From assembly GCF_018350175.1 (NCBI RefSeq), contig NC_058368.1, positions 106,084,001-106,148,000 of the forward strand: a stretch of DNA of 64,000 nt. The letters run 5' to 3'. Below the pieces are notes generated by a model, which was given only the letters and a program-made list of their open reading frames with translations, did not search any database and was not told the DNA's origin. The translations under genes were made by a program, and so were the position numbers. The DNA comes from Felis catus. Taxonomy: Eukaryota. Shown here in pieces: positions 901 to 25,218 of this stretch; position 1 is the stretch's first letter; the number at the start of each line of letters is the position of its first letter.

Positions 901-935
901 TCCTGGGGTAGAGTCAGGGCTTTTCCCTTTGTTCC

Positions 936-1443: not shown

Positions 1444-3149
1444 AACTAGCAGTTATTTTAGAAATCAAAGGTAAGAGTATGAATGTCTGGGAATATAAGA
1501 GGTAGATTGTATTGGGAAGCAAAAAGGTCATGATGAGAGGCCATTTGATATTTTTATTTGTCACCATCTTCCAGTGACTTATCCATGAAATCTGTCTCTC
1601 GCATACACAGTTTTAAAGACTCTTGGAGCCATAAATAATAGACCTCTACAGTTCTTTATCTACCCGTTTATCTATCTAGCTGAGAAGCATTTAATGAGCA
1701 CCTACTACTTCTAGGTTGCACAGGGGAAATGAATACATCAAGAATAAGACCAATGCTTAACCTCAAGAGACCCCTTGAGTTAAAGCTGTAGAAAGGAGAA
1801 CTTTAAAGGTTAGTTTTATACTTATTTAATCCATGCTAAAAATGGCTGCTGCTTTTTAGTCACTGTAGGGAACAATCCCATTTTACCAGTTCTGTAAGTG
1901 ATTTTGTAGATTTTCATCATGTTCTCTCTCGGGTTCTGCTTTTTTGGATTTACCTATCCCAACTATTTTCGTCTTTCTAGAGCAATTGTCCTCTCTCTTC
2001 TATCTTAAATTATGTAGAGTATGTGTCTGCATTTGTGCGTGTGTTCTCAGAGCATTCCCACAATAGCTTCAGTTCCCTTTTCTGGGTTGTGACTGATAAA
2101 GGATATTTCTTGTTTGACCTTTTGTCATAGAGGTTCTGAGGACTCCCTTTAGTCTTAAGTCATCAGTCTGGGTGCTGGCTACTTATAAAATATAGGTAGA
2201 TTTCATAATTGTAGAGATTATGCTAAGAAATGCCTCTTCTCCGTCATGTATGAAAATTAAATGAAATGAGTTTTAGTACTTGCCCTCGAAGACAGTGGTC
2301 ACCCAAAGAAACATCTGTTTATTTCAATCCTTGGCTTTCTGTTCATAAATCAGTATCCTCTTCCTGAAAAGCATCTCTACTGTAGTTTCAGCCCAACACC
2401 CCTATCTATGCTGAACACACCCACCAGGGAGCTTTCTTCAAAAATATTTGACAATTGGTGCTGTGTGGACACCTACCACTTGAGACAGACACCGGCCTTG
2501 GATGGCTGGGATGGCCTCAAGTCTCTGACATGCCCCCAGGAAGAAAAAGGGACATGATTTCTGTGGGAGGGTTTTTGTAGAATCTTTGATTTTCAACTCA
2601 TTGAAAAATCAGAAACATTCAGCTCTATCTCTAGTTTTGTAAAGGAAAAATTGTAACTCACTTCCCTTACCTTAACCTATTTCACTGCCCAAAAAAAAAT
2701 GTATCTTAAAATGTATCTTTTATGTTCTCTATCTCCTTCTCTTTCATTATCTTCTCCTTCATCAAAATGCTCAGATTTGGGAATCTCTTCAGATTGTATA
2801 ACCACATGCAAAACACTATCAAACATTTATTTCCAGATCCTTTCCAACTTACTTTAAAAAACATTTTGAAAGTAATAATCTTTTTATTCATACTAAAAAA
2901 CCCGGCAAATGAACTAGTAGTGAAGATCGCTTTATTGTTCTCCCCACCACCTGCGTACTGTTAGTTATTACAAACTCTAATATCTGATGGCCAATGCCCC
3001 CTACTCCAGGAAGTTTCCCATGATTTCTCTGTCTCTTTATGTCTTATCTTGGCATCTCTCTCACAGATATACTATATAATTGTCGTGTTTGAATATGAAT
3101 ATGCTTTTTTAAAATGTTTTGATATATTTCAGATGTATTTGTTGTACTC

Positions 3150-3270
3150 TTTTATTCAACAGATATTTATTGAGCAGCAAACTATGTGCCAGACCTTAGA
3201 CCATGTTCTAGTTACTCAGGAAATAATGTTGAACAAGACATCAAATTCCTTGTCCTCGTGGAGTTTATAT
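3150..3270 (-). mobile_element. L2 3' end
   Basis: attcaacagatatttattgagc...tatgtgccag. Confidence 0.7.
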
Positions 3271-3499
3271 CTCAGTCTCTTGCTTTATATTAAAGTAGTC
3301 TTGTCTTTACAGGGTAAGGGCTCCTTCTCCCCATATTTAACTTCCTGTGTTTTACATTATGACACATAGTCAATTAATGTCCAATGAATGCTAATGGTAC
3401 TTTGGCTTCCACTGTGGTTTTTTCCCAGCCACAGCCCTTCCTCATTATCCTGATATCCGTACCCCACATTTCTCTCGGGAGATGCTCAGAGAGGCCTCA

Positions 3500-3745
3500 T
3501 GGCATGGCAGTTTGTATCAGTCTCTATAATTAAGGCTGCCTGTGCTGGAATCTGGGGGTGGCAGATTTTGATCCGATACTTCAGTTCTCAGTAACTAAGT
3601 TTCCTCCTCAGGAAAGTAGTGGCAGTAACAAAACCGACCAACCTTCTAGGATCTCTGAGCATCAAGTGAATTTGAACCTGTAAAGTGCTTGTGATGGCAT
3701 CTGACCCTAGGGAAACTTTATAGAACTGTTGGCTATTACCATTAT
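3500..3745 (+). mobile_element. MIR SINE
   Basis: agtttcctc core, tgtaaagtgctt, tgttggctatta end. Confidence 0.6.
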
Positions 3746-3949
3746 TTTTATTAACTAATTTATTTCCTTTGGGAGCTGCCTTTTAGGGATTGTCAATCAG
3801 TGTCCTCTCCCCGACTTTCTAAGGACCGGATGTGAGACTCTTCCCCAGGACTTTAGATATTTTTGCTTTTCCATCCCAATGGCAGTGCCCTAATGAGTCT
3901 GTCTGTTAGTTCCTGCTATTCAGCTGTCCAGAGCTGCCCTGTTTGCTGA

Positions 3950-4088
3950 CCTTTCCAAGCCTCGATCTTCAGCTTCCCATGGATTTCAAGATCTGGTTCA
4001 TACCCTTGCAATAAAATCTCTGTTTTCATAAGTTAGCCAGCGTCTGTATCAGTTGCTTGCAACCAAAGAACCCAGAAGCTGACAGAAT
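3950..4088 (+). mobile_element. MLT1 (MaLR) LTR 3' end
   Basis: aataaaatctctgttttcataagttagcc...ttgcttgcaaccaaaga. Confidence 0.65.
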
Positions 4089-4771
4089 ACAATAGTTCAT
4101 TGTGGTCCTCATCTGTGCAGCGGGCTGCAGTTCTCCTCACAGGCTGAGGGATCATTTTGCCTCATCTTCTTAAATTCAAGGAGAGGATTATATAACCAAA
4201 CAGTTGTAGTTGATATACTCCAGCATGCACCCCGGCTTGCTAATTCCTTTCACTCTTTCTAATGTTTGAACCTTTGACTCTTACTTTACCTTGTTAAAAA
4301 AAAAAAAAGACATCTGTGCAGTCCAGTGCTGAAGAGCTTTTCACTTGTAGCAAGATTTTAAGGAGAGCTATAATGTGCAAACACAGGCACTGTTTGGAGG
4401 CTGTTTCTCCTGCTATCCATGGGGAAGGTAGGAGTGAGGCAGAAGTGAGGCCCCACTGACATCACCTCCGTATGAGCTTCGCTGGGATGTTACATCTGCC
4501 ATAGGCTGAACTGGTAACGTTGCCCGATATAATGGTCAGGCTGGTGTACTCTTCCTGTCTCACTGGCCTCTGAGAGAGATCATCTTCCTGAAGTTAAGGT
4601 GACTCATGTTAATGATCTATATATATAGAACTGCAGAAGACTATTTGTGAAGGAAAATTTCAAGTTCATGATCAAGTTCTTTATATTTGGACCAGAGTCC
4701 CCAAAATGGGTGATCATGGTTTCCCTGAATCTCTCGGGAGAGTGTTAAGGGAAAAAAATGGAGGCTGGCCC

Positions 4772-5011
4772 CCTATTTGTTTCTTACTGCTCCTGTAACA
4801 AATTACCAGACCCTAAGCGCTTAAGACAACACTAAGTTGCTATCTTATAGTTCTGGAGATGATAAATCCTAAAATTAAGGCGTGGCCAGAATGTTTCTTC
4901 TGGGGGTTCTCGGGTAGAATCTGTGTCGTTGCTTTTTGCAGCTATTGGAGGCTGTCTGCTTTGCTTGGTTCATGATCCATCCTCCACCTTTAAAGCCAGC
5001 AAGGTGCATCT

Positions 5012-5062
<51 letters not shown>

Positions 5063-5325
5063 ATCTGTGCTTCTGCCATCATGTCTCCTTCTCTGACTCT
5101 AACTTCGCTGCCTCCCTCTTTGCCTTATAAGCAATTTTCTGATTACATTAGGCCCATACAGATAATCCAGCATATGAGATAGGGACGTCTTGAGATGGGG
5201 ATATCTCAGGATCCTTACGTTAATCATATCTGTGAAGTCTCTTTTGCCACATAAGTTAATGTATGCATGGGTTTGGGCATTAGGACTTGGACATCCTTAT
5301 AGGATCATGACTCTCCCTTCCAAAG
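4772..5325 (-). mobile_element. MLT1 (MaLR) solo LTR with internal (CT)n
   Basis: tgtaacaaattacca...cttaagacaacac...atagttctggag; gattacattaggccca; ttaatcatatctgtgaagtc. Confidence 0.85.
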
Positions 5326-5495
5326 GTTCTTTCCCACTAGAAAGACAGAGAAGTGAGTGTACAGCTTTAAAACACAGAAGGGTTACTAAAGAAAAGGGAG
5401 CCCAAAATGATCCACCAAGCAGTAGCCCAAACTTCCACAATTTCCTAGATGGCTACATTGGAGAGTTCCAGATAATCCAAATGCCCTTCAATAAT

Positions 5496-5535
5496 CTCTC
5501 TCTCTCTCTCTTTCTCTCTCTCTCATACACACACA

Positions 5536-5576
<41 letters not shown>
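5496..5576. repeat. Compound (CT)n(CA)n microsatellite
   Basis: Direct reading. Confidence 0.95.
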
Positions 5577-5578
<2 letters not shown>

Positions 5579-7214
5579 GAGTTGGGAATAGAAGACTATG
5601 CAACCATTCATCAGGTGACTTTTGGTCTTGATTTACTGGCATGTGGACAGTGAAGATGCGGATTACCTATCATCCTGTTCTGTATGCTCTTATGCAAGTA
5701 AGACTGTTGTCATAAATCATGGGAGCGTTTATGCACAGAGAGAGAAAGAGAGAAAGAGAGATGTCTGAAGAATGTTCATCAATAGGTTAAACCTTGCTTC
5801 ATCCTGAGTCGTATGATTTGGGGCTATTTTTACAGTTCTGTTTTGCATCTTTTCCAGTTTTAATGTTTTCATCATATCTTTCTTCCATAAACAATATAAC
5901 TTTTTTAAAAGGCCGAAAAATGACGAAGGGAGAGAATGGAAACATTGTCTGAGACTCTGCAAAGTGTAAAAAAGTTGAACTGCTGTGGATTGGAGCCGTG
6001 GCACTGGGCAGAGGGAGAAGGAAGGCACGGGCACAATGAGGCTGGGGAGCTGTGGGCGGGCACTAGCAAAGCAGAGCCAGCTTTCGATGGTGGCCGAGCT
6101 GGACTAGACAGCTGCAGCCAGAAATCTCCCCAGGAAGAGGTGCACTGAAGCCTGAGTGAAGACAGTTGGGAGTGGATAGAAGTCAAGCCAGACATTAAAT
6201 GGGGGAAGAACAAAAAGGCAGTGCAGTGGAGGACTGGGTGCTAGATATTTTGCTCCTGATAGGATACTGCTCCAGACCCTCAGAAACAAGGGCAGAAAAG
6301 GCGCTTAGTGTTCTCTTTTTGCATTTCTGTCCCTCTGGGAATTGATGGACAAGTCAGTGGTCATTTGGAGGGCAGATGGAGGCGAAAGAGCAGGAAAGTA
6401 GGTGTGTAAAGCCCAGACAAAATAGTATGTGTGAGATTATAAACCAAACTAAACTTCTGTGAAATGTAGGGGACCAATTTTCAGGGATACGCATGGTCTG
6501 GAGCCTCTGGTAATGCCCACAGGCGTGTGCACATCTGCGAGCTGACCGAGGGGCAAGCAAACTGATGGTTTAATGGACTGATTTCTGCATGTCAGCTCCA
6601 TGACTCTTTGTTGTACATATTCCCAGTTATCGATAAAAGTGAAAGATCATAATTTTGTACAAAAATCATGTTTTATCATTTTCAGATAGTATGAAACTGC
6701 AAAGGAAAACCAGAAATTAGATTCTGAATAAAGATAATTCTAGGAAAGGCAATGCTATTTCTCATGCATTCTCATGACCACAAATCACACAGAAAACAGG
6801 ACAAATACCAACTATCCTTGGTGTTCTCACTCAGACTGCCTTCAGTTCTTGATTCTCAGGGCATTAGTCCTACGGAGTGGCATGTTAGACACACAGAGAG
6901 ACAACTTTTGGAGGCTATTTGGTACATGATGACACAGTGGCCACCTCTTTTCTGAAAGATTTGTTCGCTAGACTGTGCTTCACACGTCGTTGTTCATGAA
7001 CATGGATTCAGTAGTTCCTGTGATGGTGTAGTTTAGATTTTGTGCCTCGTTGTGTCCAAAGCATTGACTGTGGCTTGACTACCATAGACCTTCTATGAGT
7101 CATGGCAAACTTTCTTTCATTCCCTTCCACCTCACCCAGCCTCACTGTCACATTTGGCCCGAGTGTATGTGAGGGAGGAATGGTACCTAAGTTCCACTTG
7201 ACATCACAGTTTCT

Positions 7215-7392
7215 TTCTTCCTTATGTTTATCACAGTTGCAATCAATATTTGTGTGTTAGCTTTATTAATATATGGCTCCTACCTTAGATTATAGATTTC
7301 ACAAGACAGGTAAATATATCTGTGACTGATCACCACAGTGTCCTGCTACCTAACACAGTGTTGAAACTCAGTCAATAGTTGTTAATAAACGA
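7215..7392 (+). mobile_element. L2 3' end
   Basis: cctaacacagtg...tcaatagttgttaataaacgaa. Confidence 0.55.
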
Positions 7393-8387
7393 AAGGTATA
7401 TCAAGACAAAAGGGTAATTATGCCTTCACCATTAATGGCATGGGTAAGGTGATTTAACTCACAAGTTGCTTCCTTTTTTATCAGGAAGGGATCGGTGTGT
7501 GGGGAGCTTACAGCTTCACAATAACATAAGAAATCCTTTCATTTTAGAGATAAGGAATTTCAGGTCAGGGCAGTTTAATTACTTATTCGAGGATCTAAGG
7601 CACTCACTGCTGAGCCCATTTCATCAAGAATAGTGATGAAGTCAGTCAGGGATGGACTTGGCAAAAGAATCAGATCGGTTTGGATTTCGGGCCAGAACTC
7701 CATTCATTAGATCCGGATGTTTCTGGCACAACATTAACCAAGAAGCACATCGCAAGACTTCTTTTCTGATTGCATCGACTAAGAAATTAATCTTAACAGT
7801 TTGAACAGATAATGAGAGGATGGACCCCAGTCAGAGAAGTTTATTAGGAAAGAGCTGGCAGTGGAACAAATAACCTCCTCCTTAATCCCTGAAACCAGGC
7901 GACCATCAAACTATATGTGCTTGGTGATTAAGCTATTTGGGCTGCAACATGTAAACCTTCTCGGCCGTATGCTCCTGCTCTCTGGAGTGATTCATGTCTG
8001 TAAAGATGCTGCTGCAGTGAGGAAAATGTGAGCCTCTCTGATGACAGTTGTTGCAACAAGACAAAAGCATTTTTAGAATTATTGCTATTATCTCACGTGA
8101 GAGATGCTGACAGTCTCTCTCCATCTTGCCCCTGTAATCCCATTAGATTTCACAGAGTTTGCAAGGGAAGCCTTGAGGCCATGGCTGAGATGAAGTACGT
8201 TCAGGAATGTTTCTTTTTCTGCAGCTAGAATTGGTGATTCATATTTCAAGGGATTTGTAAAAACACATCCTGTCTACAAATGATGGAAAATTCTTATGTT
8301 GCGGTAGGATAGTAAGGGACTTCAGAAGTTATCAAATTCTTGCTCCTTCCATGTAAATTGCATGCAAAGGAAAGGTTTTATGGAAAT

Positions 8388-8425
8388 AGGTAGGTAGGTA
8401 GGTAGGTAGGTAGATAGATAGGCAG
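8388..8425. repeat. (AGGT)n(AGAT)n tetranucleotide repeat
   Basis: Direct reading. Confidence 0.9.
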
Positions 8426-9134
8426 ACTAAATAAATAAAAAGTATAAAGCCAGAGATTCCCTGAGAAAAACAACTCTGTAACTTTCCTAATCTTCTTTTA
8501 ATTTGCTGTGGGATCCTCTCATACATGCTGTATGAGTAAACATGAGCAATTGTAATTCTATTCTGGTCCTTACGCTGAGGAAGTCCGTGCTGGCACAAGT
8601 GGCTAAAGCCTAAACAAGAATTCGTTGCTATCAGTTTGCACCTACTCCTAATGTCCCATCTGTTAGCAGTGGTTTTTATTGGAGGCGTAATGTCATTTTT
8701 TTCAGATTTTTTTTTCAATTAGAGGTCCACAGAATTTAATAATAAGGAAAGATTCACAAGTTATATAAACAAATACAAGCAAGTCTTGCTTATTTAATGG
8801 CTCAAGTCCTAGTGCTTATATAATCATATCCCTTGCTTCCCTGCCATGGCTCCATGTCTTACCATTTTATTGATTTTAGCATTCTTATGGGCAAAGAAGT
8901 CATTAGTTCTAAAAGGATGAGGGGAGAAAAAAAATGTTCAAAGAAAATACCCAAGAACTTATACTACCACTACATTAACAGAAAGCGGCTAAAGGTAATA
9001 TGGATAGTCATAGCCATTTCTGGCCATCTGGATTGTTATAGAAAACAGAATTGGAGCTGGGCCTGAGAGGCACATCATATACCTACAAAATAAAATAAAA
9101 AGGAGGGAAAAAAAAGGCCTGAAAAATATTTGAG

Positions 9135-9605
9135 GGTGATGGTGATGGGAAGGGTGGATGCTGTCATGGTGAGGGTGCTAGTGACAGTGTTGATACAGGG
9201 GTGGTGGAGGTAGCCGTCATGATGGCAGTGTTGATGGTGATGAGGGGTGATGGTGGTGGTGGTGGGGATGATGGTAGTGGTGACAGTCATGGGGTTGGTG
9301 ATGCTGATGGCAGTGGTGTGGTGGTGATGATGATGAAGGTAGCAATCGTGTTGGTAGTTGGGGTGGTTATAGTGATAATGACAGTGATGATGGTCATGGG
9401 GTCAGTAGTGGTAGTGGTGGTGATAATGATAGTTGTGTGGTGATGGAGGTGATGACGGTATTGATGAGGGTGAAGGGGGTTATGAGGATAGTGGTGGTGG
9501 TGGTGGTGAGGGCGGTCATGAGGGTAGCTCTCTACTATGGGGTAGACAGTTGTGGTGAGGGTGCTATAGATAGTGGTAATGGTAGTAAACATCATGGCAA
9601 TAGTA
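9135..9605. repeat. Degenerate (GGT/GAT)n trinucleotide low-complexity tract
   Basis: 3-nt periodic ggt/gat/agt units, very C-poor on + strand. Confidence 0.9.
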
Positions 9606-11599
9606 CAGATGGAGCTGAGGGGAATATTCCTTTCCCGTGACCCTTCCAATTTTCTGTAGACATTTTTTACCAAATGACAAAGAGAAGAGACCTGACATGG
9701 TGGCAGGTGAAGCAGGTGGAAAGAGACCACTGCTCTCCCTAAGGGAAATTCACTGCTTTTTATGCTGTCCCAGTACTTAATTTCATGCATCATCCCTCTT
9801 TGAGACAAATCTCCTTGTGTTATGAGTCAGACACATCATCTCTCTTCAGTAAATGTTCTGAAATGCTAGTTTGTATTTCCAAGTACCAGTAAATGGTTTC
9901 AACAGATGGGTATACCTTAACCGTGGGTAAGGCAAACCATAACACAAAGGTATTCTTTCCAGTCATGTATAATGTTGATTGTTTTCTAATTACTAGAAAA
10001 AGGGAGATTTCGAAGTGTGATTAGCTTCATTGCCAATGTATTTGTAAAGTTCTTACAAAAAAGACATTACCTAAGTTCTTTGTCAGTTCAGAGAGAACAG
10101 TGTTTAATCCAAAGTGTGCAGACTGATGCCAAGGAAAATGTTCCCAATGGAGACTGGAGTTGCATTGGCTCCGGATAGTTACTGAGCTCAAATATGGAAC
10201 ATGGTGTATTTCATTCTCCGAGGGAACTAAAAACGTGTTCCTTGCATAGTGAAAGTTGGTCTCCTTCTCTCTCATTTTATCAAGAATTTCACATCTCTTT
10301 ATTTCTAATCCCCATTGTCTGATGCAGATTCTCCAAGGAGAAAAAAAGTTCAAAGTTACAGTGTTTTCTAGCAGTTGTCATCTGAATGACTGTCATAAAG
10401 GGATGAAAGTTTATGTGCCATCTAGTCTCTCCTCTGTAGACCCATGGCTATGTGCACGAGGTGTTGCTGATGTATTTCCAACAGCAACATCTGGTTCTCT
10501 GGCAGCCTGCTCTGCTAACTGTGCTGACCCATTGATGCCTCTAGAACTGTTCAGAAAATGCTGTATGGGTTGGCCAGAATATGTGGAGGCCATAGGGCTT
10601 TTTTGTTCATCCTCCTGGGTGCTATTTATCTGTCAGTCACATTTCATGCTGAGGAATTTACTGTACTTGTCAGTGTCTATTTGAAATGAATAAGGAAACT
10701 CCTCATTAAAGACTGGGATTTATATAGCCCAAATGGGAGTATTCCCAGTGCTGTATTTAGGATAGTTGGAGGAGCTGTGCCATTGGTTGAATTGTCCTTA
10801 AAATGTTGATTTTTCCCCAAGATGGTCTCTGAGTGTTACATATCCAATAGAAGCCAAGATGAAGGCTTCCCCCCACCCCAGGGGCCTTATGGGATGGGGG
10901 GAATGTGTACAGTGACCACTATTAGAAATTAAAGTTTTAGGAATTTATATCAGAGTTCTCAGGGAAAAAGCTTCCTGGTAGAAGAACAAAGCAGGACTGA
11001 AATCCAGTGGAAAGGAGCCAGATAACATGAGCACAGAAGGAAGAAAGCGAGAACGTAGGGTCGTGAGCCCAGATATGGGAACCAAAGGAAAGATTAGTGT
11101 AGTCTGATAGGTCAGGAGAAAATGCAGTGCTGATGGTAACATAAAGTGGTGTGCTTTGAGAAGAGAAGCAGAGAAAATGAAATTCTGGCTTAAACTAAAC
11201 TGTTCCAACATTAGAAAGAGATGTCTGGAAAACTGAAAAGGTATTTTAATCAAAAAAAGATATAAGGGAAATGAGGATAGATAGATTTATCAAGCTAAGG
11301 AAGAGGCAACGAAATGAAGATTAATAAACTCATTTAAACTGGATATGAAACCATGGTAAATCACATTTTCTTCAGAAGGTAAATTCACATCTTGGTTTTG
11401 AGAGGATAATCTTTACAAATAACATAAGTGTACATCTACTCACTTGGGCAAGTGATTTTATCCCTGGTTCAGTTGTAAATGAGAGTATCCACATGGATAG
11501 AAAATGCTTTCTTGGAATCATGTGGAAAGGGAACAAATAGTCCTGAAGCTACAATATGGTTTACTTCTTGTACAGATTTGTGACATTAACGTTCATTAT

Positions 11600-11825
11600 T
11601 ACAATAGTAGCCACTGCCTATATAGGGCTTGCTATATGCCAGGTACTTCTCTAAGACATTTTGGTGCATTAACTCATTTGATCCTCATGAACAAATGTAT
11701 GAGATAGGAGCCATTTTATTACCCCTACTTATGGATGGGGAAACTGAGGCATAGAGAGGTTGAGTAACCTGTCTGAGACACAAATGATGAAGTTGAGATT
11801 TAAACCCGGTAGTGCAGCTCTAGGA
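11600..11825 (-). mobile_element. MIR SINE
   Basis: tatgccagg...attaactcatttgatcctca...gaaactgaggcatagagaggttgagtaacctg. Confidence 0.85.
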
Positions 11826-12649
11826 TCTGTTTCCCAACATTCTGGGAGTTGATGTTGAAGACCAAGTTTTCACAGAGAGGTATCCGACCCAGGTAAGCAG
11901 AAAATGAAACTAATACAGTCATTTCCATGGAAAGCAAATAAGGTGAGGAATCTTTTCAGGTTGTAGGCATCAGGTTACAGCTACTGCTGTCTTACCACGT
12001 ATGAGCCACAGATTTTGATGTGGTAGACAAAGGAAACATTGCTTTGTTAAAGCTTGAATAATGTATAGAAATGAATGGTGCTGCCATCAATCACCTCAGC
12101 ACAGGCCATCAATGTTTCACTTGTTCGTTGATTCAGTGATTGGGAAAACGCTCAAACAAGTGAGTAAATCGGCATTGCTCATTATTCATTTCTAGAATGG
12201 TGCAAGTGTCTATGCTAAGGGGAGGTGGTGGTTTACTGCCATAATTTGTAAAGTCCTTTAAAACTTGAGATAGCAGGCCTGGTAAAAGTGCAAAGTATTA
12301 TTCTCATTTACAGTCCGGCCTGATTTAACAAAAGGCCTGAGCATCATAAACCTGCAGACAGAAGGAGTCCAGGGGGAAAATAGAGGCTTGCTCATAAGCC
12401 AGCTGTGCAGAGGGCTGGACTCCAGCTTCCCATCACGGGTGTGCAGCCCAAAGAATGTTGGCTGCCTCCGGGGCCAGCTGGCTCACACAGGGACTGTGCT
12501 CCTGGAAATCCTGAAATGTCTGCGCAGGACTCCAGCCAATAGAGTTTTGGTTAACAGAGGAGCAATCTCATCAGCCAGATTTGAGTCAAGCTGTTTTTCA
12601 AAGGCCTGCTAACTTTAACACGTGACCAACAGGGCTGTCACCTGTGGCT

Positions 12650-12750
12650 CGTGATACCTGCCTTTTAAGGTTATTGTGAGGCTTCAGTTAAATAATTGGT
12701 ACGAAGCACTTAGCACAAAGTTTGGCCCAAGCTAAGAAGTCAATAACTGG
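12650..12750 (+). mobile_element. MIR 3' fragment
   Basis: ggttattgtgagg...aagcacttagcaca. Confidence 0.55.
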
Positions 12751-13599
12751 GTTTTGTGGTGGTGATTTTCAAGTTCCCTTTGTGAGATCCCATGCCCGTG
12801 GTGCCTCCGTCACCTTCCAATTCGTCTCCTCTTCATGGTTCATGATTGGGTGTGACACATAGGGACAGATTCCCTCGCTGGGAGTTGATGGAACATGACA
12901 GCATAGTGGCAGGAATATGTAGCCCTCTGCACATGCATAGCTTACCTGACAGCAGTGATGGCGGTTTCTTACCACAATCCCTGTGAGACTGGAACGGGAG
13001 TAGCCGCCAATTCTAGAAGGCCAGGGGGCCAAACGGCTTCCCCAGAAATGTCCTCTTCCTCCCATGGCAGCTACCTTGGGCGGCCAGAAGGAACTTTTCT
13101 TTCTTCCAAGAACTTTGTGAGCGATGTTTAGTCCCATGACCAGACCCTTCACCAATGCCAAAGTAGGCTGGTGTGGCTGGCTTCCAACGCTCCCTCTGGT
13201 TGCTGACTGAAGGAGACATCACCTGACATTCCTTAGATTTTTCTGGAACTCACTTGGGCCAGCCTGGGTCAGGGGGCAAACCAAGAGAAGTTAACGAGGT
13301 TCGAAACAAAGTGGAACCAGTCTGCCTGCTAGTATTAGGTCCAATGATTCTCCATCGTCCCCAAATTCTCTTTACCCCAATGACCTAGAGAGACAGCAAT
13401 GTTTTTCTCCCTTTCTTTTTTCCCCATTAAAATTTGACCAACATTCAGCTAGTTCTTCTATAAAGGGAGTGACAAAGAACTCCTGGCAAATTTGGGGTAG
13501 GCTGTATAATTTAAATAACAATCTCTCTTATAACATGAGGTAAAATTTGGAGGCCAAACGCGAAGTAAGGTCGCTTCTTTGGCAGAAGTTATTGGTCAA

Positions 13600-14600
13600 G
13601 AACCAGTGAGGAATCCAGACTTTGCCTTATAAAAACACTTCTACCTTGTACCCCTTTAGTCAGTAATTCTGTCTTGGCAATTTTCTTCATGTCCTGAGGG
13701 TGGGCACTTTTTATTCCCTATTCAAAATATTCATTGCATAGCTTCAAATAAAGTACATGTTATTGTGTTTTTTTTAATTTATTTTTGAGAGAGAGAGAGA
13801 GAGAAACAGAGCACAAGCCGGGGAGGGGCAGAGAGAGAGGGAGACACAGAATCCGGAGCAGGCTCCAGTCTCTCAGCTGTCAGCACAGAGCTGGACGCGG
13901 GGCTCAAACTCATGGACTGTGAGATCATGACCTGAGCCAAAGTCGGATGCTTAACCGACTGAGCCACCCAGATGCCCCAGTACATGTTATTGTTTTGTTG
14001 ATAACATGCTATGTTCTAAAATTACCCATCCAAAGACCTAGCGTTGATAAAATGGAATTAGGCTTACTGCTTTAAGTAAAGTTCAGCACCAAACTGAAAA
14101 TAACGGCTGTGCATTTTCAGCATTTCCAAAATAAAGTATCTGTCTATAACCCTTTCTGGATGGGGACCAGCAGGTTCTGGGAAGAATATTAACCTGAATT
14201 TGTTGCAGTCTTGTTTCCCAAACTGCTTTATAAACACTTCCCCATATGTGCTGCCAAAGCTTTGCATTTAATGAATCATCCAAATCTTTTTGCCATATAT
14301 CCTGTGTAGCTATTGATGAAGGCATACATGTTCCCACTATGTGAGGAGAAATAAGAGAAACACCTTACATTACCAGCCGAAACGGCCTCATAAGATAATC
14401 CTATTAGAATATTCATTTTGATTTTTTTTTATAAATACTGACTTAAATGTTGGAGAGTTTAGACCCAATTGCCTTGTTATTTTTTAGGAATCATTTTATC
14501 TATTTGATACCTTGTCTTTATTCTGATTAAACACAAAAGAAGTGTAAATTGTTGCTTAATAAACACTTCAATTCTTGCTTCATGATTCTTTTGCATCCTT
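13600..14600 (-). mobile_element. Ancient LINE fossil: ORF2 C-terminus of non-mammalian-type L1/Tx1-like element, split by a SINE
   Basis: Collinear minus-strand peptides IKTRYQI, WQKDLDDSLNAKLWQHIW...RLQQIQVNILPRTCWSPSR, LFWKC, VFG, VPTLRT*, AKTELLT, KVWIP. Confidence 0.7.
13768..13978 (-). mobile_element. Can-SINE
   Basis: Full element; TSD agtacatgttattgt at 13752 and 13979. Confidence 0.97.
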
Positions 14601-14624
14601 AGTTACTGTTACCTTATTTTATAG

Positions 14625-14870
14625 ACGGCTTAGCAGTCAAGGACGGAGGTTAAGAGCCCAGGTTTTGCCGTCAAGTATGTTGGATTTCATGTTCAAGTTC
14701 TGCCTCTGAATAGTTATATAAACAGAGCTCTCTCATTCTCAGTTTTCTCATCTGTACAATGGGAAGAGACAATACCTCCTCTGGCTACCATAAAACTGAA
14801 ACAGTGTAATGACTGTTAAGTTTTTGGTTTGGTTCCTGATGCATGACACAGGTAAACAATTGTTATTATC
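14625..14870 (+). mobile_element. MIR SINE
   Basis: ggttaagagc...ctcagttttctcatctgtacaatggg. Confidence 0.85.
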
Positions 14871-15359
14871 ATGTTGTCTAATCACTATTGGATCACCACT
14901 GCTAAAAGGGGCTACAGGGAAACAGCAACAACAACCTTCATCTGCAACCATTAACAGCCATGTGTGGAGTACCAATCAGAAGCACTTCTTTGCAACGTGG
15001 GAAAGGTCATTGGCGTTGCTGATGGTGCCAGAACAGTTTTCAGGTTCTTTCCAGAACACTAAGTGTGCTACCTTCCCTCTTTCCTTTCAGGTGACCAGTA
15101 CTCTGGTTTATTTTGTGCCATCCGCATTTCAAGCTGTATCTGATTCTCTACTTACAGAGACAACCGCTGGCCATGGCAAATCTTGGCTCTTTCCCTTTGC
15201 CTAGTGTTCAGAGGGCTAATAGTGAACAGGTTCCCCTTCGAGGGCATCTGATAGTGAGTTTGTACAGTCCCTGCCAGATCCTGGACTCCATGGCACCCAA
15301 GCACTCTCAACCCTTTACACTACCATTTTATGAATTTTTTTTCACTTATAAAATCCCTC

Positions 15360-16560
15360 CTTGATTTTCCCAAGCCACGATTCTTTGCATACCTCCTGAG
15401 AATACCCTCAAGATCTCCAAATCAAACTACCGCCTTACTCCCAGCTCCAGCATTTCCTCAATCATATCCTAGAAGTTGCTATTACAAGTAATGATACCTG
15501 CTCTAAAATTCAGTTTTAAGCATCCCGTTATTCAACAATACCTCCTATATTTCAATAACCAATGTATACTAGGTCAACAACAAATCCAGCAGTTCTCCAA
15601 CCTCACCAGGACTTCCAATCCTTTGACCTTACTGTCTTTCACCTCCATTATGTCCTCATCTTACCCTTAACTCAATTTTATGTTGCACCCTTTGCGTGTA
15701 ACCTCAACAGTCTGCTCTCTGGGGTCATCTTCTCTGCTGGGAAAAACTCATGAACCTGATTTGGGGGCTATGGCTCAAGAAAAACAGACATCCTTGCTGT
15801 CTGCCTCTTTTATTTTTTTTTTAATTTTTTTTTAACGTTTATTTATTTTTGAGACAGAGAGAGTCAGAGCATGAACAGGGGAGGGGCAGAGAGAGAGAGA
15901 GGGAGACACAGAATCGGAAACAGGCTCCAGGCTCTGAGCCATCAGCCCAGAGCCTGACGCGGGGCTCAAACTCCCGGACCGCGAGATCGTGACCTGGCTG
16001 AAGTCGGACGCTTAACCAACTGAGCCACCCAGGCGCCCCAGCTGTCTGCCTCTTTTAAATTTGTGTCCACACCCCTGGACATCACAGTGTCCCTTTCAAA
16101 CCCACAAACTGGCCTTCTACTGCCTTTCTGATATCATCTCTGATATCCCCCTCAGGAACTTCCCCCTCAGCAGCAATCCCATGGAACTCCTAGATGTTCT
16201 TTGAACATAACAATCGTGTTCTTGTTCCTGGGGTTTTACAGCCGTATCTTCCACTTCGAATGTCCTTCTGAGTCATATGCCACCCTCCCCCCACAACGTA
16301 GGTATATGTCTTTCTAAATACCAGAGAAGTCGTCCTCGACTGTTCTGTCTCAAATAGCACTCTCAGCCGCTTTGCATTCCCATACCTTGCAATATTTTTC
16401 TCAAGAGTCATTACCACCTAATTGTATATACATTTTTTTTATTATTTTTAAAGACTTCATACCTCTCCTGCCCCACTGGAAAGTGATCTATGAAAGCAGT
16501 GCTATGTGTCATTCCCTGCCATTCTTACCTTCAGAACTATTTGATGAGTAAATGGATAAG
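15360..16560 (+). mobile_element. Diverged L2 (body and 3' end), interrupted by a SINE
   Basis: C-rich degenerate body; cttgttcctggggttttacagccgtatcttcc; 3' terminus-like ttgatgagtaaatgga. Confidence 0.5.
15813..16039 (-). mobile_element. Young Can-SINE (SINEC_Fc-type)
   Basis: TSD gctgtctgcctctttta at 15796 and 16041. Confidence 0.97.
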
Positions 16561-17029
16561 TGTATGAAATTCCTGGGGCCAAAGCTGATATGAGCATGAC
16601 ATTCACAGTTTTAAATTCTAATTTCTGGTGGTTCACATGTGATTACCAACATACAGAGAGAACTGTTAAGAATGCGATATTTTTAATTCATGTGCACAGT
16701 CCTTTCACTTATAAAATGGGAAACTATCACTATTTACTTGTATTTGTTGCACATGTATAGAAGGATGTCTGAGCAATTATTTGTGAAAGTTTGAGAAAGG
16801 TGGATCCTAAGTTTTTCAATTCTTATATTCTGTTTTGGTAAAATACAAAAACCTAATATTCACCCTCTTAATCATTTTTAAGTGTATAGTTCAGTGGCAT
16901 TAAATATGTTAGTGATGTGCTACCATCACCACTGTCCCTCTCCAGGGCTCTTCATTTTGCAAAAGTGCTACTGCCCATTACACTCCCTATTTTCCACTTC
17001 CCTGAGCCCTTGGAAACCACCATTTTACT

Positions 17030-17031
17030 TT

Positions 17032-17091
<60 letters not shown>

Positions 17092-17309
17092 ACAAATTTT
17101 TTTAAATTTTATTTATTTATTTTTGGGAGAAACAGAGAAAGCACGAGTGAGGGAGGGGCAGAGAGAGAGGGAGAGAGAGAATCCAAAGCAAACTCCGAGC
17201 TGTCAGCACAGAGCGTCATGCAGAGTTTGAACTCCCAAAACCATGAGATCATGACATGAGGTGAAACCGAGACTTAGACGCTTAACCAACCAAGCCACCC
17301 AGGTGCCCC
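17030..17309 (-). mobile_element. Can-SINE with (CTTT)n-expanded tail
   Basis: TSD gaaaccaccatttt at 17013 and 17311. Confidence 0.95.
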
Positions 17310-18590
17310 AGAAACCACCATTTCACTTTCCGTATCGATTCTGACCACTCTAAGTACTTCATACAAATAGAATCCTATAGTATTTGTCTTTTTGTGACTG
17401 CCTTATTTCACACTGTATAATATCCTCAAGGTTCGTCCATGTTGCAGCATGTGTCAGAATTTCCTTCCTTTTTAAGGCTGAATATTCTTCCTTTGTGGAT
17501 ATATGTCCTCATTTTGCCTACCTTCATCAATTGAGGGACACTTGGATTGCTTTCACCTTCAACTCTTGTGAATAATGCTGCTGTGAACATGTGTATACAA
17601 ATATCTCTTCAAGACCTTGCTTTCAGTTTTGGGGGGTATATACTCAGAAGGGAATTGCTGTATCATTTAACTTCTTGAGGAACTGCCATACTCTTTTCCC
17701 GTTTTTCAACACGGGATGTGTTTCTATTTATTTATATTTCTTCAGTTTCTTTCAGAAATGTTTTCTGGTTGTCATTGCATAAGGCTTTCGCCCCTTAGTT
17801 AATTCTTTAGTGTTTTATTCTTTATGACGCTACTGTAAATAGAATTGTTCATTTCCTTTTCAGATTGTTCTTCTTTAGTGTATAGAAATTCAACTCATTT
17901 TTGTGTGTTCATTTGGATCCTGCCACTTTGCTGAATTCATTTACTGTTCCAACATTTTCTTAAAAGAATTATTAGGATTTTCTACATATACTATTATATC
18001 ATTTGAAAACAGATAATTTTACCTCTTTGTTTCCAAATCGGATGACTTTTATTTCTTTTTATTCTCTGATTACTCTGAGTAGAACTTCCTTGCCTTGTTC
18101 CTGATCTCAGAAGTATAGCTTAGTCCTTCACCATTGAATATGGTATTTCCTGTAGGATTTTCATATATTTTATGAGTGCCTTTTCTTATGTTGAAGTAGG
18201 TTCCTTTAATTCCTGGTTTGTTGAGTATATTTGTATGTAATGGTGTCGAATTTGCTAAATGATTTCCTGTCAATTGAGATAGTGGTGTGACTTCTTCCTT
18301 CATTCTGTTAATGTGGTAGTAATTGAATTTTGTATATTGAACCATTCTTGTATTTCAGGTATAAATTCCACTTTGTTGTGATGAATAATCCTTTTAATAT
18401 ACTGCTGAATTTGGTTTGCTAGTATTGAGATTTTTTGCATCAGTGTTCTTTAGGGATAATAGTGTGTGGTTTCTGGTAGTATCTTTGCCTTTGGTATCAG
18501 AGAAATGCCATCCTCACAGAATGAGTTGGGAATGCTCCCTCCTCTTCATTTTTTTGGGAAAAGTTTGAGAAGAATTGGTGTTGGTTCTTT

Positions 18591-18812
18591 CTAAAAAAAA
18601 TTTTTTTTTAACGTTTATTTATTTTTGAAACAGAGAGAGACAGAGCATGAATGGGGGAGGGTCAGAGAGAGAGGGAGACACAGAATCTGAAACAGGCTCC
18701 AGGCTCTGAGCCATCAGCACAGAGCCTGACGCGGGGCTTGAACTCACGAACCGCGAGATCATGACCTGAGCCAAAGTCGGACGCTTAACCGACTGAGCCA
18801 CCCAGGCACCCC
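18591..18812 (-). mobile_element. Can-SINE
   Basis: TSD tggtgttggttcttt flanking. Confidence 0.97.
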
Positions 18813-19641
18813 TGGTGTTGGTTCTTTAGATGCTTTGTAGAATTCATACAGGGGCCATCAAGTCCAAGTTTTTTCTTTGTTGTAAGATTTTTTTATATTA
18901 TTTCTTCAACCTCCTCATCAGTTATAGATACATTTACATTTTTAATTTCTTTGTGATTTAGTCTTGGTAGGGTTTGTGTTTCTAGGAATGTGTCCTTCAT
19001 CTAAGTTATCCAATTTATTGGTGTGTAATTGCTCATAGCACTCTTGTGTAAGCCTTTTTGTTTCCCCAAAACCAGTAGAGCTGTCTCCATTTTTATCTGA
19101 TTTTAATATTTTGAATCTTCTTTTTTCTTCCTAGTCTATCCAACTAAAAGTTGATCCATTTTGTCGATCTTTAAAAGAACCAACTTTTGGTTTTATGGAT
19201 TTTCTCTCTTTTTTTCCCTCCACTTCATTTATTTCTGCTCTGATCTTTATTTCTTTCCTTCTGTTAGCTTTGGTTTAGTTTTTTTTTTTTCCTTTTTCTA
19301 ACTCCTTAAGTTGTGATGTTAAGTTATTGATTTGAGATCTTTCTGTTTGTTTGTTTTTTAATGTAAACGTTTATAGCTATAAATTTCCCTTAGTGCCACT
19401 TTGCCACGTTCTGTAAGTTTCTGTGTGTTTTGTTTCTGTTTTCATTCAGCTCTAAGAATTTTCTGATTTCCCTTGTGATTTCTTCTTTGATCTGTTGGTT
19501 GTTCAAAAGCATGTTGTTTAATTTCCACAATTTTGTGAATTTTTCTGTGTTGTTTTTGTTGTCGTTGTTTGATTTCTAACTGCATCATGTTGAGGTCAGA
19601 CAAGTTCCTTTGTACGATATCTATCTTTTAAAAGCTATTGA

Positions 19642-19807
19642 GGGGCACTTGGGTGGCTCAGTTGGTTGAGTATCTGACTTTGACTCAGGTCACAATCTCA
19701 TGGTTGGGGAGTTCAAGCCCTGTGTCGGGCTCTGTGCTGACAGCTCAGAGCCTGGAGCCTGCTTCAGATTCTGTATGTGTGTCTCTCTCTCTGCCCCTCC
19801 CCCACTT

Positions 19808-19838
<31 letters not shown>
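19642..19838 (+). mobile_element. Can-SINE within L1
   Basis: ggggcacttgggtggctcagttggttgag head, (CT)n. Confidence 0.95.
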
Positions 19839-19839
<1 letters not shown>

Positions 19840-20389
19840 AAGCATATTGTCTATCCTGGGAAATGTCTCATGGGCACTTGAGAAGACTGTGTTCTGTGGT
19901 TGTTGGATGGAGTGTTCTATGTGATCTAGGTGGTTTATTGTTGTCAAGTCCTCTTTTTTCATATTCATCCTCTGTCTGGTTGTATCTATTACTGAAAATG
20001 GGATATTGAAATCTCCATCTCTTATGGTAGAACTATTTCTCCCTAAAGTATTATCAATTTTTATTAGAATATTTTGATGGTCTGTTATAGAAAATGTTTA
20101 TATTTGCAATATCTTCTTGCTGTATTAAAACTTAAAAAATATATAATGCCTTTCTGTATTTCTTCTTAAGCTTTTTTGGTTTAAAGTTTATTTTGCATAA
20201 TGTTAGTTTGACCACCCCGATCTCTTTTGTTTATTATTTGTATGCAATATCTTTTTCCATCCTTTCAGTTTCAATGTATTCGTGACTTTGGATCTAAGAT
20301 GAGTCTTTTTGTAGACAATACACAGTTGGATCATGTTTTTTGTTTCTGTTTTTTTTTTTTAATTTTCATCTACCAATCTCTGTGTTTTT

Positions 20390-20695
20390 ATCTGAGTATA
20401 GTTGGCATATAGTGTTACATTAGATTCAGGTGTACTGCTTCGTGATTTGACATATTTATATATTATGCTGCGCTCATCGTAAGGGTAGCTACCACCTGTC
20501 CCATTACATTGTTATTACAATATACTGACCTGCAGTCTTTATGCTGTCCTTTTATTCCCGTGACTTATTCATTCCATAGCTGGAAACTTGTATCTCCCTC
20601 TCCCTTTCACCTCCAGCATCCATCAGTTTGTTCTCTGTGTTTATAGGTCTGATTCTGCTTTTTTGTTTATTCATTTTTTTGTGTATTTTTTTATT
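20390..20695 (-). mobile_element. L1 3' end (carnivore/L1MA-type)
   Basis: gtatagttggcatatagtgttacattagattcaggtgtac. Confidence 0.8.
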
Positions 20696-20744
20696 TAAAT
20701 TTTTTTTCAAGCTTTCAGGGCATTTTATTTTTCATTTTCTGAAG

Positions 20745-21910
20745 TTTTTATTTAAATTCTAGTTAGTACATACAGTGTAATATTAGTTTCAGGTGTACAG
20801 TATAGTCATTCAACACTTGCATACATCACCTGGGGCTCATCAAGACAAGTGCATTCCTTAATCTCCATCACATATCTCCCACCCACCTCCCCTCTGGTAA
20901 CCATAAAATTTTCCATATAGTTAAGAGTCTGCTTCTGGGATTGTGTCTCTCTCTCTTTTCTTTTCCCTTTGCTCGTTTGTTTTGCTTTTTTTGTTTGTTT
21001 GTTTTAGGTTCTGCTTACAAGCAGAATCACATCAGCAGAATCGTATGGTATTTAGCTGTCTCAATCTGACTTATTTACTTAGCATAATACCCTCTATGTC
21101 CATCCATGTTGTCTCAAATGGCACGATCTCATCCTTTTTATGGCTGCATAATGTTCTATTATATGAATGTGTGTTAAGTGTGCACGTGCACGCATGTGTG
21201 TATACATACGTACCATATACCACATTTCCCTTATTCATTCATCTCTTAGACACTTAGGTTGCATCCATACCTTGGCTATTGTCAGTAATGCTTCAATAAG
21301 TATAGGGGTGCATATATCTTTTTGAATTAGTGTTTTCATGTTCTTTGGGTAAATACCCAATAATGGTATCATTGGATCATATGGTATTTCTATTTTTAAC
21401 TTTTTGAGGAACCTCTATTCTTTTTTTTTAAATTTTTTTAACATTTATTCATTTTTGAGAGTAAGAGAGACAGACCATAAGCAGGGGAGGGGCAGAGAGA
21501 GAGGGAGACACAGAGTCCGAAGCAGGCTCCAGGCTCTGAGCTGTCAGCACAGGGCCCAAAGCGGGGCTCAAACCCACGGACCGCGAGATCATGACCTGAG
21601 CCGAAGTTGGATGCTCAACCAACTGAGCCACCCAGGTGCCCCAAGGAACCTCTATTCTGTTTTCTACAGTGACTGCACCAGTTTGTCTTCCCAGATATGT
21701 GCAAGAGGGTTTCTTTTGTTCCACATCCGTGCCAATCCTTGCTATTTCTTGTCATTTTATTTCAGCCATTCTACCTTGTATAAGATGCTATCTCATTGTG
21801 GTTTTCGTTTGCATTTCCCTAATGATTAGTGATGCTGAGAATCTTTTCATATGTTGGCCATCTGTATGTCTTCTTTGGAAAAGTGTCTATTCATGTCCTC
21901 TGCCCATTTT
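20745..21910 (-). mobile_element. Carnivore L1 3' end including ORF2 zinc-knuckle region
   Basis: tattagtttcaggtgtacag...; tatctcattgtggttttcgtttgcatttccctaatg. Confidence 0.93.
21421..21642 (-). mobile_element. Can-SINE
   Basis: TSD aggaacctctattct. Confidence 0.97.
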
Positions 21911-21927
21911 TTAAAATTATTATCTAT

Positions 21928-21968
<41 letters not shown>

Positions 21969-22100
21969 AAGCATGTGCAAGCAGGGGAGGGGCAGAGTGA
22001 GAGGTAGAGAGAGAATCCCAAGCAGGTTCCATGCTCCACACAGAGTCTGACGTGGACCTTGATCTCACAACTGTGAGATCATGACCTGAGCCGAAATCAG
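21907..22100 (-). mobile_element. Can-SINE, head truncated, long (GA)n
   Basis: gagatcatgacctgagccgaaatc then abrupt end. Confidence 0.9.
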
Positions 22101-23359
22101 AAGCAGAACTAAAGGAGAGCCCCTAGCTTTTCCTTTGGCAGAGACACTCCTGACACAGAGTTAACTGTGGCATGGTTTATTCCTTGAGGCATTTATATTC
22201 TCTTAAGGACCAAGACATAGAAGCAAATAATTATAATAGAAAGTGTTACATGCTGTCAAGAAATTTTGCTCAAACGGCTAGTGGATCCTAGTGGATTGAG
22301 AGATTTTTTTCAGCTTTGGTAGACTTGGGAAATTCTCAGGTAGGTGATGTTTATAATTTAGATTATATAGTTTATATTTATATAATTTAGATTATACCTG
22401 AAGGATAAATGGAGTAGAGTAAAAGTAAAGGGCCTTGAAACGTATGGCAGGATGTCAGGAAAAAGGAACTAATTTTCTGCTAGTCACAGGTTGAAACCAT
22501 GTTTTAACGAGTTACAGAGGCCATTGTGATGGGCATTGAGAGCAGTTAGATGAAAGGAAATGAGAGAGAAGCACAGAGAGTAAAGGGGATGGGACAGGTA
22601 GCCCAGAAAGATGGGGGCAGAAGCTAAAGAGAAGGTAGTCTGTGTGCCTACGGCCACACACTGGGAATGGGAGCTTAGAGTTACGATCCTTACTCAGGGG
22701 ATGAGAAGAATGGGTCAAGGTGGAGGACAAGGGCACTAGTGGAGAGCCCAGGATCACAGTGGTCAGCAGTCAAGTGCCTGCCCTGTCTTCATGTGAGTGA
22801 GATCCTTGTAGATTAACATCCTCACCAATATACCACTCCTCTATCTACTGTTTTTTTTTCTGGGAGTAGGCATTCACTCAGCATCTGGAGTCTTTGCTTT
22901 GACATAGTCTAGCTTTTCCATAAGATTAATTTCCACAGGATGTTCCTCTGCATAGCCAAAAAGCTGAAGAGGAGGGCTCCTGTCTACTGAGGTGATGGGA
23001 AAGAGCTCTCTATACCTACATGAACTGCCCCAGGATGGGAGAGTGGGGACCAGATAGCACCACCACAGGCCTTGAACCTCTCTTTTAATGTCCACACATC
23101 CTCATTATATCCAAACAACAAACTTGTGCATTGGATATTAATTACTACTCTCAGCATATATGCGAGGATACTAAGGCTCAGTCACGTTAAGTTCTTTGTC
23201 CAAAGTCAACTTTTGTCCAATGATGGTGTTTTGCCTGACTAAAAGGATTTACTCTTATAGAGGACACTGTGTTATTTATGTTGTGTGTCTCTGACTTTAT
23301 CTAGCACAGATGCTTTTAAGTAGCAGGAAAATGTCATGTGTGGATAAGATTGTGGCGTG

Positions 23360-23570
23360 AGAACCAGTCAAATTTGAGTTCAAAGCCAGATTCTGCTAAT
23401 TTCTGTAAGTGAGACTTGGGCAAATTACTTTTTCCTCATGGCCCCACTTTTCTCATGTGTCTGAAAAAGTTTCTAACACCTCCTGCATAGTGGTGAGGAA
23501 TAAATGAGATAATACACGAAAAGCAATTCTCCTAGCGTTTGCAACATGGTCAGCATATAGTTATAATTAT
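23360..23570 (+). mobile_element. MIR SINE
   Basis: acttgggcaaattactt...gtgaggaataaatgagataatac. Confidence 0.8.
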
Positions 23571-24160
23571 TTTTTAAGTTATGTGCTAAGTATTTTTAAA
23601 ATGCCAAATGTCATGCCCATTAAGAAAGAGAATTCCTTGTTTAAGAGTTATTTTCAACCTCATTAACACATCATTGTCTGACATAATGATATGGCAGAAT
23701 TGTTAAGGTATGTAAAATGGCTTTTGGCCTTCTGCAAGAAAGAACTCAGTGTCTTGCCAACTTCTTTAAGTGAGTTTTGTTCACACACCATTAAGAGGTA
23801 TCTGTTGTGGTTTATATGTTAGGCTATATCAGGGATGGGTGTAGGGGATTCAAGGGCCTTTCCAATGGCTGAGGGCTGACTGGAGAGACAGAAACCAGGA
23901 AATCTTTCATTCTGACAAACGTAGAAAAAGTATATTCTTTATATAGTATGCCCAAATCTTTTCATGAGATTTTGAGGCCCTTTTTGAAGGTGTCACAATC
24001 CTAACACATGCTTTAATAAAGTGTACATATAGTGATAAGAAACAAAAACAAAACAAAACAGAGAACAAATTCCCCTAATTTCCCCAAAGATCAGCCTTAG
24101 ACAAATGTCTTTCACAGCACTTCCTTCTCTCACTCCCACCTTCCATTCCAAAGCAGCTAA

Positions 24161-24196
24161 TGTTTTGTTTTGTTTTGTTTTGTTTTGTTTTGTTTT
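24161..24196. repeat. (TTTTG)n repeat
   Basis: Direct reading. Confidence 0.9.
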
Positions 24197-24411
24197 ACTT
24201 TTGTGACCACCCTTAAGAGAAAGATAATCATGAATAGCTTTCCCTGCAGATGTGGTTGAGTAGCAGAGAAATAACAGCCCCATCAGTATCTTATTTCTGC
24301 TTCCGTCAGAGGAATTGTATTAGCAACCATTCTGTTAACAATGAAACAAAAGTATCTAGTAAGTAGAGAAAAAAATCAGTTGCTATCTCTCTCTCTCTTT
24401 CTCTCTCTCCC

Positions 24412-24427
24412 TTTTAAATGTTTATTT

Positions 24428-24471
<44 letters not shown>

Positions 24472-24641
24472 AGAGCAAGCAGGGGAAGGGCAGAGGGAGG
24501 AGGCGGGGAGAGAATCCCAAGCAGGCTCTGCACACTGTCAGCACAGAGCCTACTGGGGCTCAAACTCCGGAACCTTGAGATCATGACCTGAGCTGAAATC
24601 AAGAGTTGGATGCTTAACCGACTGAGCCACCCAGGCACCCC
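24412..24641 (-). mobile_element. Can-SINE
   Basis: Full element; degenerate TSD cagttgctatctct / cagttgttagctct. Confidence 0.95.
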
Positions 24642-24887
24642 AGTTGTTAGCTCTTTCTTAACAAGTTCTCTGCACTGAAAAAGGACTCTGCCTTCATGGA
24701 ACTTTTAAATCTACTCTTTGAATACTTTTGTTTTCATTTCTTCCCACCTGGTGGTATTTGTTAGTAATTGTATTCCCAGCTCCCTCTTTGCTAAGTAGTG
24801 CAAAGAATACAAGTCATAAAGATAGTACTTTAATTGGAAAAAAGCAACAAGGCCTGTAACTTTCAGAGTATCATGTTTATTTCTAAG

Positions 24888-24998
24888 TTCAGTGATGGAC
24901 TCATCCAGGTTTGCCCAGGACATCCCCAGATTCAGCCTCCAAGTCCAGTGCCTGGGAAACTTTTCAGTCTTGATAAACCAGGATGATTGGTCACCCTA
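24888..24998 (+). mobile_element. MER81-like hAT-Blackjack MITE
   Basis: catccaggtttgcccaggac...aaaccaggatgattggtcacccta terminal inverted repeat. Confidence 0.75.
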
Positions 24999-25008
24999 AT
25001 GGAGATGG

Positions 25009-25218
25009 TTTCTTTCTTTTTATTAATGTTTATTTATTTTTGAGAGAGCAAACATGAGCAGGAAAGTGGCAAAGAGAGGAAGACAGGATCTGAAGCGGGT
25101 TCAGTGCTGACAGCAGAAAGCCAGCCCTATGTGGGGCTTGAACTCATGAACCGGGAGATCATGACCTGAGCCAAAGTCAGATGCTTAACCAACTCTGACG
25201 GGGCCACCCACGTGCCCC
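25009..25218 (-). mobile_element. Can-SINE (older)
   Basis: gagatcatgacctgagccaaagtcagatgcttaacc. Confidence 0.92.

Follow-up and report, generated by a model that had tools for sequence, protein, structure and literature searches.

The closest described systems to the element reported here are ancient L1 and Tx1 relics in mammalian genomes. In the available parts of Frith 2022 (PMC9004415), five L1 and two L1-Tx1 fossils of pre-tetrapod age are reported in human, together with a further 137 L1 and 12 L1-Tx1 fossils of pre-amniote age; these fossils were mostly missed by RepeatMasker, are strongly conserved and often lie in gene deserts or large introns, and exaptation is argued for them. Two ancient families in human Repbase, X9_LINE (L1) and MARE6 (Tx1), belong to the same background (Kojima 2018, PMC5753468, Table 3). 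The monotreme/therian L1 question was framed by Ivancevic 2016 and 2018 (PMC5203782, PMC6036668); the second of these papers proposed a horizontal entry of L1 into therians (PMC6036668), which Frith 2022 countered with more than 100 pre-amniote L1 fragments (PMC9004415). For non-mammalian L1, the zinc knuckle of ORF2 has the spacing CX2CX8HX4C (PMC5381506).

Here, we describe a candidate for the same class of fossil in the cat. The window, that is, the whole stretch of 64,000 nucleotides of Felis catus DNA that was analysed, contains on its minus strand what we interpret, with a probability of about 0.7, as a decayed non-mammalian-type L1 fossil with an exapted non-coding core. The features are as follows, in window coordinates; P-numbers denote homologous predicted proteins.

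13609..14590, minus strand: whole putative L1-clade ORF2 C-terminus fossil, about 750 bp once the SINE is removed; limits approximate, set from motifs and homologues
14480..14590, minus strand: upstream piece with FNQ and IKTRYQI, aligned without gaps to residues 5-41 of P0011
14311..14416, minus strand: 5' flank, faster evolving, 34 of 48 codon columns variable
14170..14310, no strand assigned: conserved non-coding core, candidate exapted regulatory element, from conservation and frameshifts
14086..14152, minus strand: putative CCHC zinc knuckle remnant (GL*TDTLFWKC...), aligned with residues 73-94 of P0012, p = 0.005
13994..14085, minus strand: post-knuckle remnant (IPFYQR*VFG), covered by P0001, P0002 and P0031
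13979..13993, no strand assigned: SINE target-site duplication, copy 1, identical 15-mer
13767..13978, minus strand: later SINE, which we take to be of the carnivore tRNA-SINE type, with 37 other copies in the window at 68-89% identity
13752..13766, no strand assigned: SINE target-site duplication, copy 2, identical 15-mer
13609..13751, minus strand: probable last part of ORF2 (NILN, IAKTELLT, KVWIP), across frameshifts

The original prediction had read a series of collinear minus-strand motifs in this stretch, and every one of them is present. In order, they are FNQ (14531-14523), IKTRYQI (14521-14501), GVSLI (14364-14350), an open frame of 48 codons (14298-14155), LFWKC (14134-14120) and IPFYQR*VFG (14058-14029), followed past the SINE by NILN (13731-13720), VPTLRT (13707-13690), IAKTELLT (13681-13658) and KVWIP (13623-13609). 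Homologues cover approximately 14590-13993, and the post-SINE motifs at 13731-13609 are tentatively assigned by their presence, by the order in which they follow one another and by the intervals between them (about 58 and 36 codons), which presumably fit the ends of vertebrate L1 elements. Relative to most homologues, the window carries a 1-nt insertion near 14365. The fossil is a C-terminal fragment only; none of EN, RT, ORF1 or UTR was seen. The poly(A) tail and target-site duplication of the fossil's own insertion would be expected to be gone through decay; an A-rich stretch lies near 13410-13425 by eye. The locus is real DNA and no assembly artefact, because at least 95% (95-96%) of 122 sampled words are present in 20 of the 24 sequencing runs listed, which come from 12 studies.

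The SINE is flanked by identical 15-bp copies and has 37 relatives in the window, which shows that it entered the fossil at a later date. The predicted interruption by a SINE is thus confirmed together with its target-site duplication, while the limits proposed for its excision were one base off (13767-13993 is correct, not 13768-13993). The 38 copies of this family in the 64-kb window, and the lack of a recognisable host exon among the frames scanned, suggest an intergenic region or a large intron; no host gene appeared among the 150 longest of the 481 non-SINE frames of the window, none of which matched Pfam at 1e-3, a weak scan because it also missed the mammalian L1 frames of the window. 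Visual reading covered 1-12000, 12500-27000 and 46001-58000, with 60300-62200 read in translation. Several other features of the window were noted. A degenerate GGT/GAT trinucleotide array at ~9130-9600 gives His/Thr-rich and Val/Met-rich open frames. A T-rich block at ~16830-21900, with strong AT skew, looks by eye like nested minus-strand mammalian L1 fragments broken by several SINEs. An A-rich plus-strand stretch at ~54330-55000 has no Pfam match and resembles, by eye, the 5'/ORF1 region of an old mammalian L1. A low-complexity tract very rich in AT lies at ~56260-56690, its 1-kb bin having a GC of 0.20.

Homologues were collected from protein databases of predicted open reading frames. 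With the 72-codon frame as query, 2 of 15 longer candidates matched; phmmer of P0001 against 1.84 billion representatives returned only six proteins, short ORFs of the same locus, and a profile search matched 16 of 485 candidates. Including cluster members, the total is 50 proteins of 49-169 residues, mapping to 14590-13993, and the sole name among them is one 'hypothetical protein'. Homology reaches 14590, since P0011 aligns to 14590-14480 with a score of 105, the maximum in 2000 shuffles being 45. The window and all close homologues have derived features in common, and most homologues therefore look like orthologues of one locus. Within the window, no second copy of the fossil was found, and tblastn of the homologues elsewhere in it gave only weak matches (best E 0.008 among 92).

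The least decayed homologue is P0012. It keeps the ancestral frame, running in a single frame from the core to the knuckle, and it does not have the deletion common to the window and the close group, after which the knuckle remnant of the window is out of frame with the core. The frame jump from the core to LFWKC, part of the original prediction, is supported by the alignment of the P0012 tail with the GL*TDTLFWKC frame of the window (score 33, p = 0.005). The distance of P0012 exceeds that of the close group several-fold, as might be expected of a non-placental orthologue or an old paralogue.

Which retrotransposon left this fossil? The argument for a non-mammalian L1 ORF2 C-terminus comes from P0012 and from the knuckle. 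In the ESM Atlas, residues 18-98 of P0012 score 0.96 (178 of 256 features) and 0.95 against Chordata clusters carrying zf-RVT (PF13966). A value of 0.95 is attained by roughly one shuffled protein in 100, a yardstick that lacks calibration for parts of proteins, and only 14% and 53% of the members of these two clusters bear zf-RVT. Thirteen of the 30 Atlas matches of P0012 carry zf-RVT, and P0005, whose tail is out of frame, reaches only 0.77-0.80. At the four positions of the CX2CX8HX4C pattern P0012 has C, Y, N and S; a single base change apiece would turn the last three into C, H and C. The CX2C register is favoured because the C at +3 is intact in the knuckle of the window and a TGA stands at +4, where P0012 has R.

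Direct sequence searches were negative. Pfam hmmscan found a relevant family in none of nine proteins (the fossil core and eight homologues), with zf-RVT not detected; P0012 matched none of 33 longer candidates, and the PDB gave no match by sequence. Neither phmmer nor the profile, longer-protein and Pfam searches yielded any fish, amphibian or reptile ORF2 that aligned directly. An AlphaFold model of the homologue alignment (pLDDT 47.7) had no Foldseek match at E <= 0.001 and is uninformative. For a non-mammalian L1 comparator, the 328 stretches of a metagenome scan included two loci, each of unrelated DNA with a microbial look; the two loci from a viral pattern scan were not LINEs, and a viral profile scan gave none of 38. 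The 43 loci of a prokaryote pattern scan were judged chance from their titles. A motif search for ORF2 ends in the supplement of PMC5381506 was empty, long cells being cut in the copy used, and a literature motif search had nuclear-receptor papers among the matches listed. As there is no direct match to any ORF2, the L1-clade identity falls short of proof; it is nevertheless well supported, and we consider it very probable. The predicted identity thus stands on the Atlas score, the CX2C register and the unlikeness to mammalian L1.

The unlikeness to mammalian L1 can be judged within the window itself. The mammalian form of L1 had been placed at ~61.1 kb, and its 10-residue segment is indeed found at 61175 and a second time at 57450. 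Two ordinary mammalian L1 ORF2 3' ends on the minus strand, at 57168-57549 and ~60700-61300, served as comparators. In six pairwise tests of the fossil against them, p ranged from 0.025 to 0.63, with the smallest value arising out of register, and hhalign against mammalian L1 gave a probability of 0.1%. For P0012 and the 57-kb copy, the best alignment is gapless over 39 columns and ends at CW (p = 0.34). An assignment to mammalian L1 (L1M/L1P) was rejected, the fossil having neither the CX3CX7HX4C spacing nor the 14-residue segment and no significant in-register likeness.

Another assignment is to the Tx1 branch, or to a copy of a curated multi-copy family such as X9_LINE or MARE6, in which case the fossil would already be annotated. 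The zf-RVT domain does not separate L1 from Tx1, although we take the motifs to look more like L1 than Tx1 and to resemble the ends of fish and frog L1. P0010-P0013 could be paralogues instead of distant orthologues; against this assignment, derived features of the window recur in all close homologues, which look like one locus, and the window holds no second copy. Both named families are in human Repbase (PMC5753468, Table 3), but 115 of the 137 pre-amniote L1 fossils and all 12 L1-Tx1 fossils are without RepeatMasker annotation (PMC9004415, Table 5, in the parts available). We regard the assignment to Tx1 or a curated family as unlikely.

The second part of our interpretation concerns the 140-bp core. 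Codons were counted in a frameshift-aware alignment of one representative from each of 12 close clusters, with the distant P0010-P0013 left out. In the core (14310-14170), 14 of 80 codon columns are variable, with 0.17 changes per column; in the two flanks the corresponding values are 34 of 48 and 21 of 47 (together 55 of 95), with 0.98 and 0.49 changes per column. The difference is significant (Fisher p = 4e-8), a value that is optimistic because the core limits were set after viewing the alignment and the homologue searches favoured conserved sequence, partly via the core itself. By 30-nt bins, four successive core bins show 3-5% codon differences and seven others 7-50%. The most distant homologues, P0010-P0013, have 9, 10 and 13 altered core codons out of 47 and 12 out of 37. 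All of this is conservation relative to the flanks of the core and not to a neutral rate. A second slow block, with 7% codon differences, lies about 80 bp upstream of the core at 14391-14420 (minus strand), its slowness maybe inflated as homologous ORFs start there.

Considering that the homologues were collected via shared words and that no direct ORF2 match exists, one may ask whether the fossil has simply decayed neutrally, the slow core reflecting search bias or very close relatives, or whether the L1 likeness is a chance property of a conserved element of unrelated origin. Within the same sequence pairs, however, 7-13 of 33 codons are different in the 5' flank and only 0-4 of 47 in the core, and two of the homologue-finding searches used queries that included flanks. 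Chance likeness, in turn, would have to account for about ten collinear motifs together with an Atlas score of 0.96. Both versions are very improbable.

The original prediction had inferred slow evolution and possible exaptation as a conserved non-coding element, and it took the open core of ~47 codons as a sign of constraint. The conservation of core over flank at the DNA level supports the first claim; the open-frame argument fails because such frames are common (541 stop-free frames of at least 47 codons in the window, 61 of at least 93) and this one does not stay open in many homologues. We therefore did not use the open frame as evidence, its length being at chance level within the window. 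The earlier interpretation is partly supported and in the main correct, on stronger grounds than it offered.

The homologues also indicate on what level selection acts. Fifteen of the 50 stay in frame across the core, 23 drop out of frame within it, six show the shifted frame only, and six were unclassed by pattern. The breaks fall near 14259 (11 proteins), 14229 (8), 14211 (1, thus resting on a single protein) and 14199 (3). The 14229 break is no sequencing error, because one member of this class is seen on 452 contigs. In the shifted frame, in which the third positions of the L1 frame become second positions, the window is matched at all but 5 of 167 codons, so silent sites are as conserved as the rest. 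With the frame broken in 23 of 50 homologues and third positions conserved, the sequence comparison indicates that the core is under purifying selection at the DNA level, not as protein.

These data bear directly on a domesticated small protein, which would be encoded by an ORF of ~90-150 codons from 14416 through the core. Such an ORF occurs in several homologues (P0001, P0002, P0022, P0023), and its start region is fairly conserved (7% differences), but the database holds only long-ORF sequences and is biased towards intact frames. In the window the ORF is broken near 14365, and the breaks within the core and the equally conserved third positions speak against it, as do the naming of the cluster members read as at most 'hypothetical protein' and the low pLDDT. 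The small-protein explanation is already largely refuted and hardly credible.

Frameshift tolerance would fit a core conserved at the RNA level, whether as an alternative exon, a poison exon or an lncRNA element within a large intron, and a CAG at 14302 (minus strand) adjoins the start of conservation. As an acceptor this site is weak, with 10 of 17 pyrimidines and another AG 8 nt upstream; there is no consensus splice donor downstream of the core on either strand, neither strand folds better than shuffles (z 0.34 and -0.07), and Rfam has no match in the window. An RNA function is thus quite improbable.

Given constraint on the DNA, the core probably works as a cis-regulatory element, an enhancer or silencer. 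It contains what we take to be a STAT-type site (14175), a forkhead site (14230), an E-box CATATG (14243) and an octamer-like site (14261). These consensus sites were picked by eye after viewing the sequence and are not counted as evidence.

We propose the following explanation. A non-mammalian-type L1-clade retrotransposon may have inserted a 3'-end fragment, comprising the zinc-knuckle region of ORF2, in an early ancestor of the sampled lineages, probably at a time when the modern mammalian L1 lineage had yet to become dominant. Its coding capacity would then have been lost via stops, frameshifts, a shared deletion and the later SINE, which lies outside the core, while the 140-bp piece just upstream of the knuckle would have been retained by purifying selection on DNA, most likely as an enhancer or silencer that binds transcription factors. 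The fossil should predate both the SINE and the divergence of the homologue lineages, which is a relative bound. Horizontal transfer is unnecessary to explain the fossil, yet it may have occurred.

A bolder version is possible but doubtful: a pre-therian, uncatalogued insertion of a fish/reptile-type L1, with P0012 as its monotreme, marsupial or reptile orthologue and a near-ultraconserved enhancer upstream of the knuckle. If this were true, a well-preserved and nearly complete ORF2 C-terminus could be placed on the L1 tree, bearing on the vertical or horizontal origin of mammalian L1. A syntenic copy in monotremes or reptiles would make the locus one more dated witness of L1-clade elements before the therian L1 expansion. 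As Frith 2022 already countered horizontal entry, one more locus strengthens a published point and opens no new one. The locus does offer a concrete 140-bp candidate regulatory element derived from retrotransposon coding DNA, in which natural frameshift variants show the protein to be irrelevant.

The fossil can finally be set against the known systems. It may be a member in kind of the fossil class of Frith 2022, either new or possibly already listed there, which lowers the novelty implied earlier, such fossils being a published class (PMC9004415, in the parts available). No paper on this locus was found in the literature by text search, as distinct from a search by sequence, and none of the alignments printed in the available part of the PMC9004415 supplement shows it. 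As with those fossils, it is a frameshifted, low-copy relic of a non-mammalian-type LINE ORF2 with strong non-coding conservation; the pre-amniote age applies to those fossils. X9_LINE and MARE6 resemble it, by description and not by sequence, as ancient non-L1M relics of the L1 and Tx1 clades in mammals (PMC5753468, Table 3). The C-terminus of mammalian L1 (L1M, carnivore L1) is probably a homologous domain, but its CX3CX7HX4C spacing and mammalian-type segment are absent from the fossil. Compared with non-mammalian vertebrate L1 ORF2, such as those of zebrafish, Xenopus and anole, the fossil is dead, about 750 bp long and decayed in its knuckle residues; what is left of these may fit the CX2CX8HX4C register of the C-terminal cysteine-rich motif in those elements (PMC5381506, in the portion available), and zf-RVT-like features appear in its homologue P0012.
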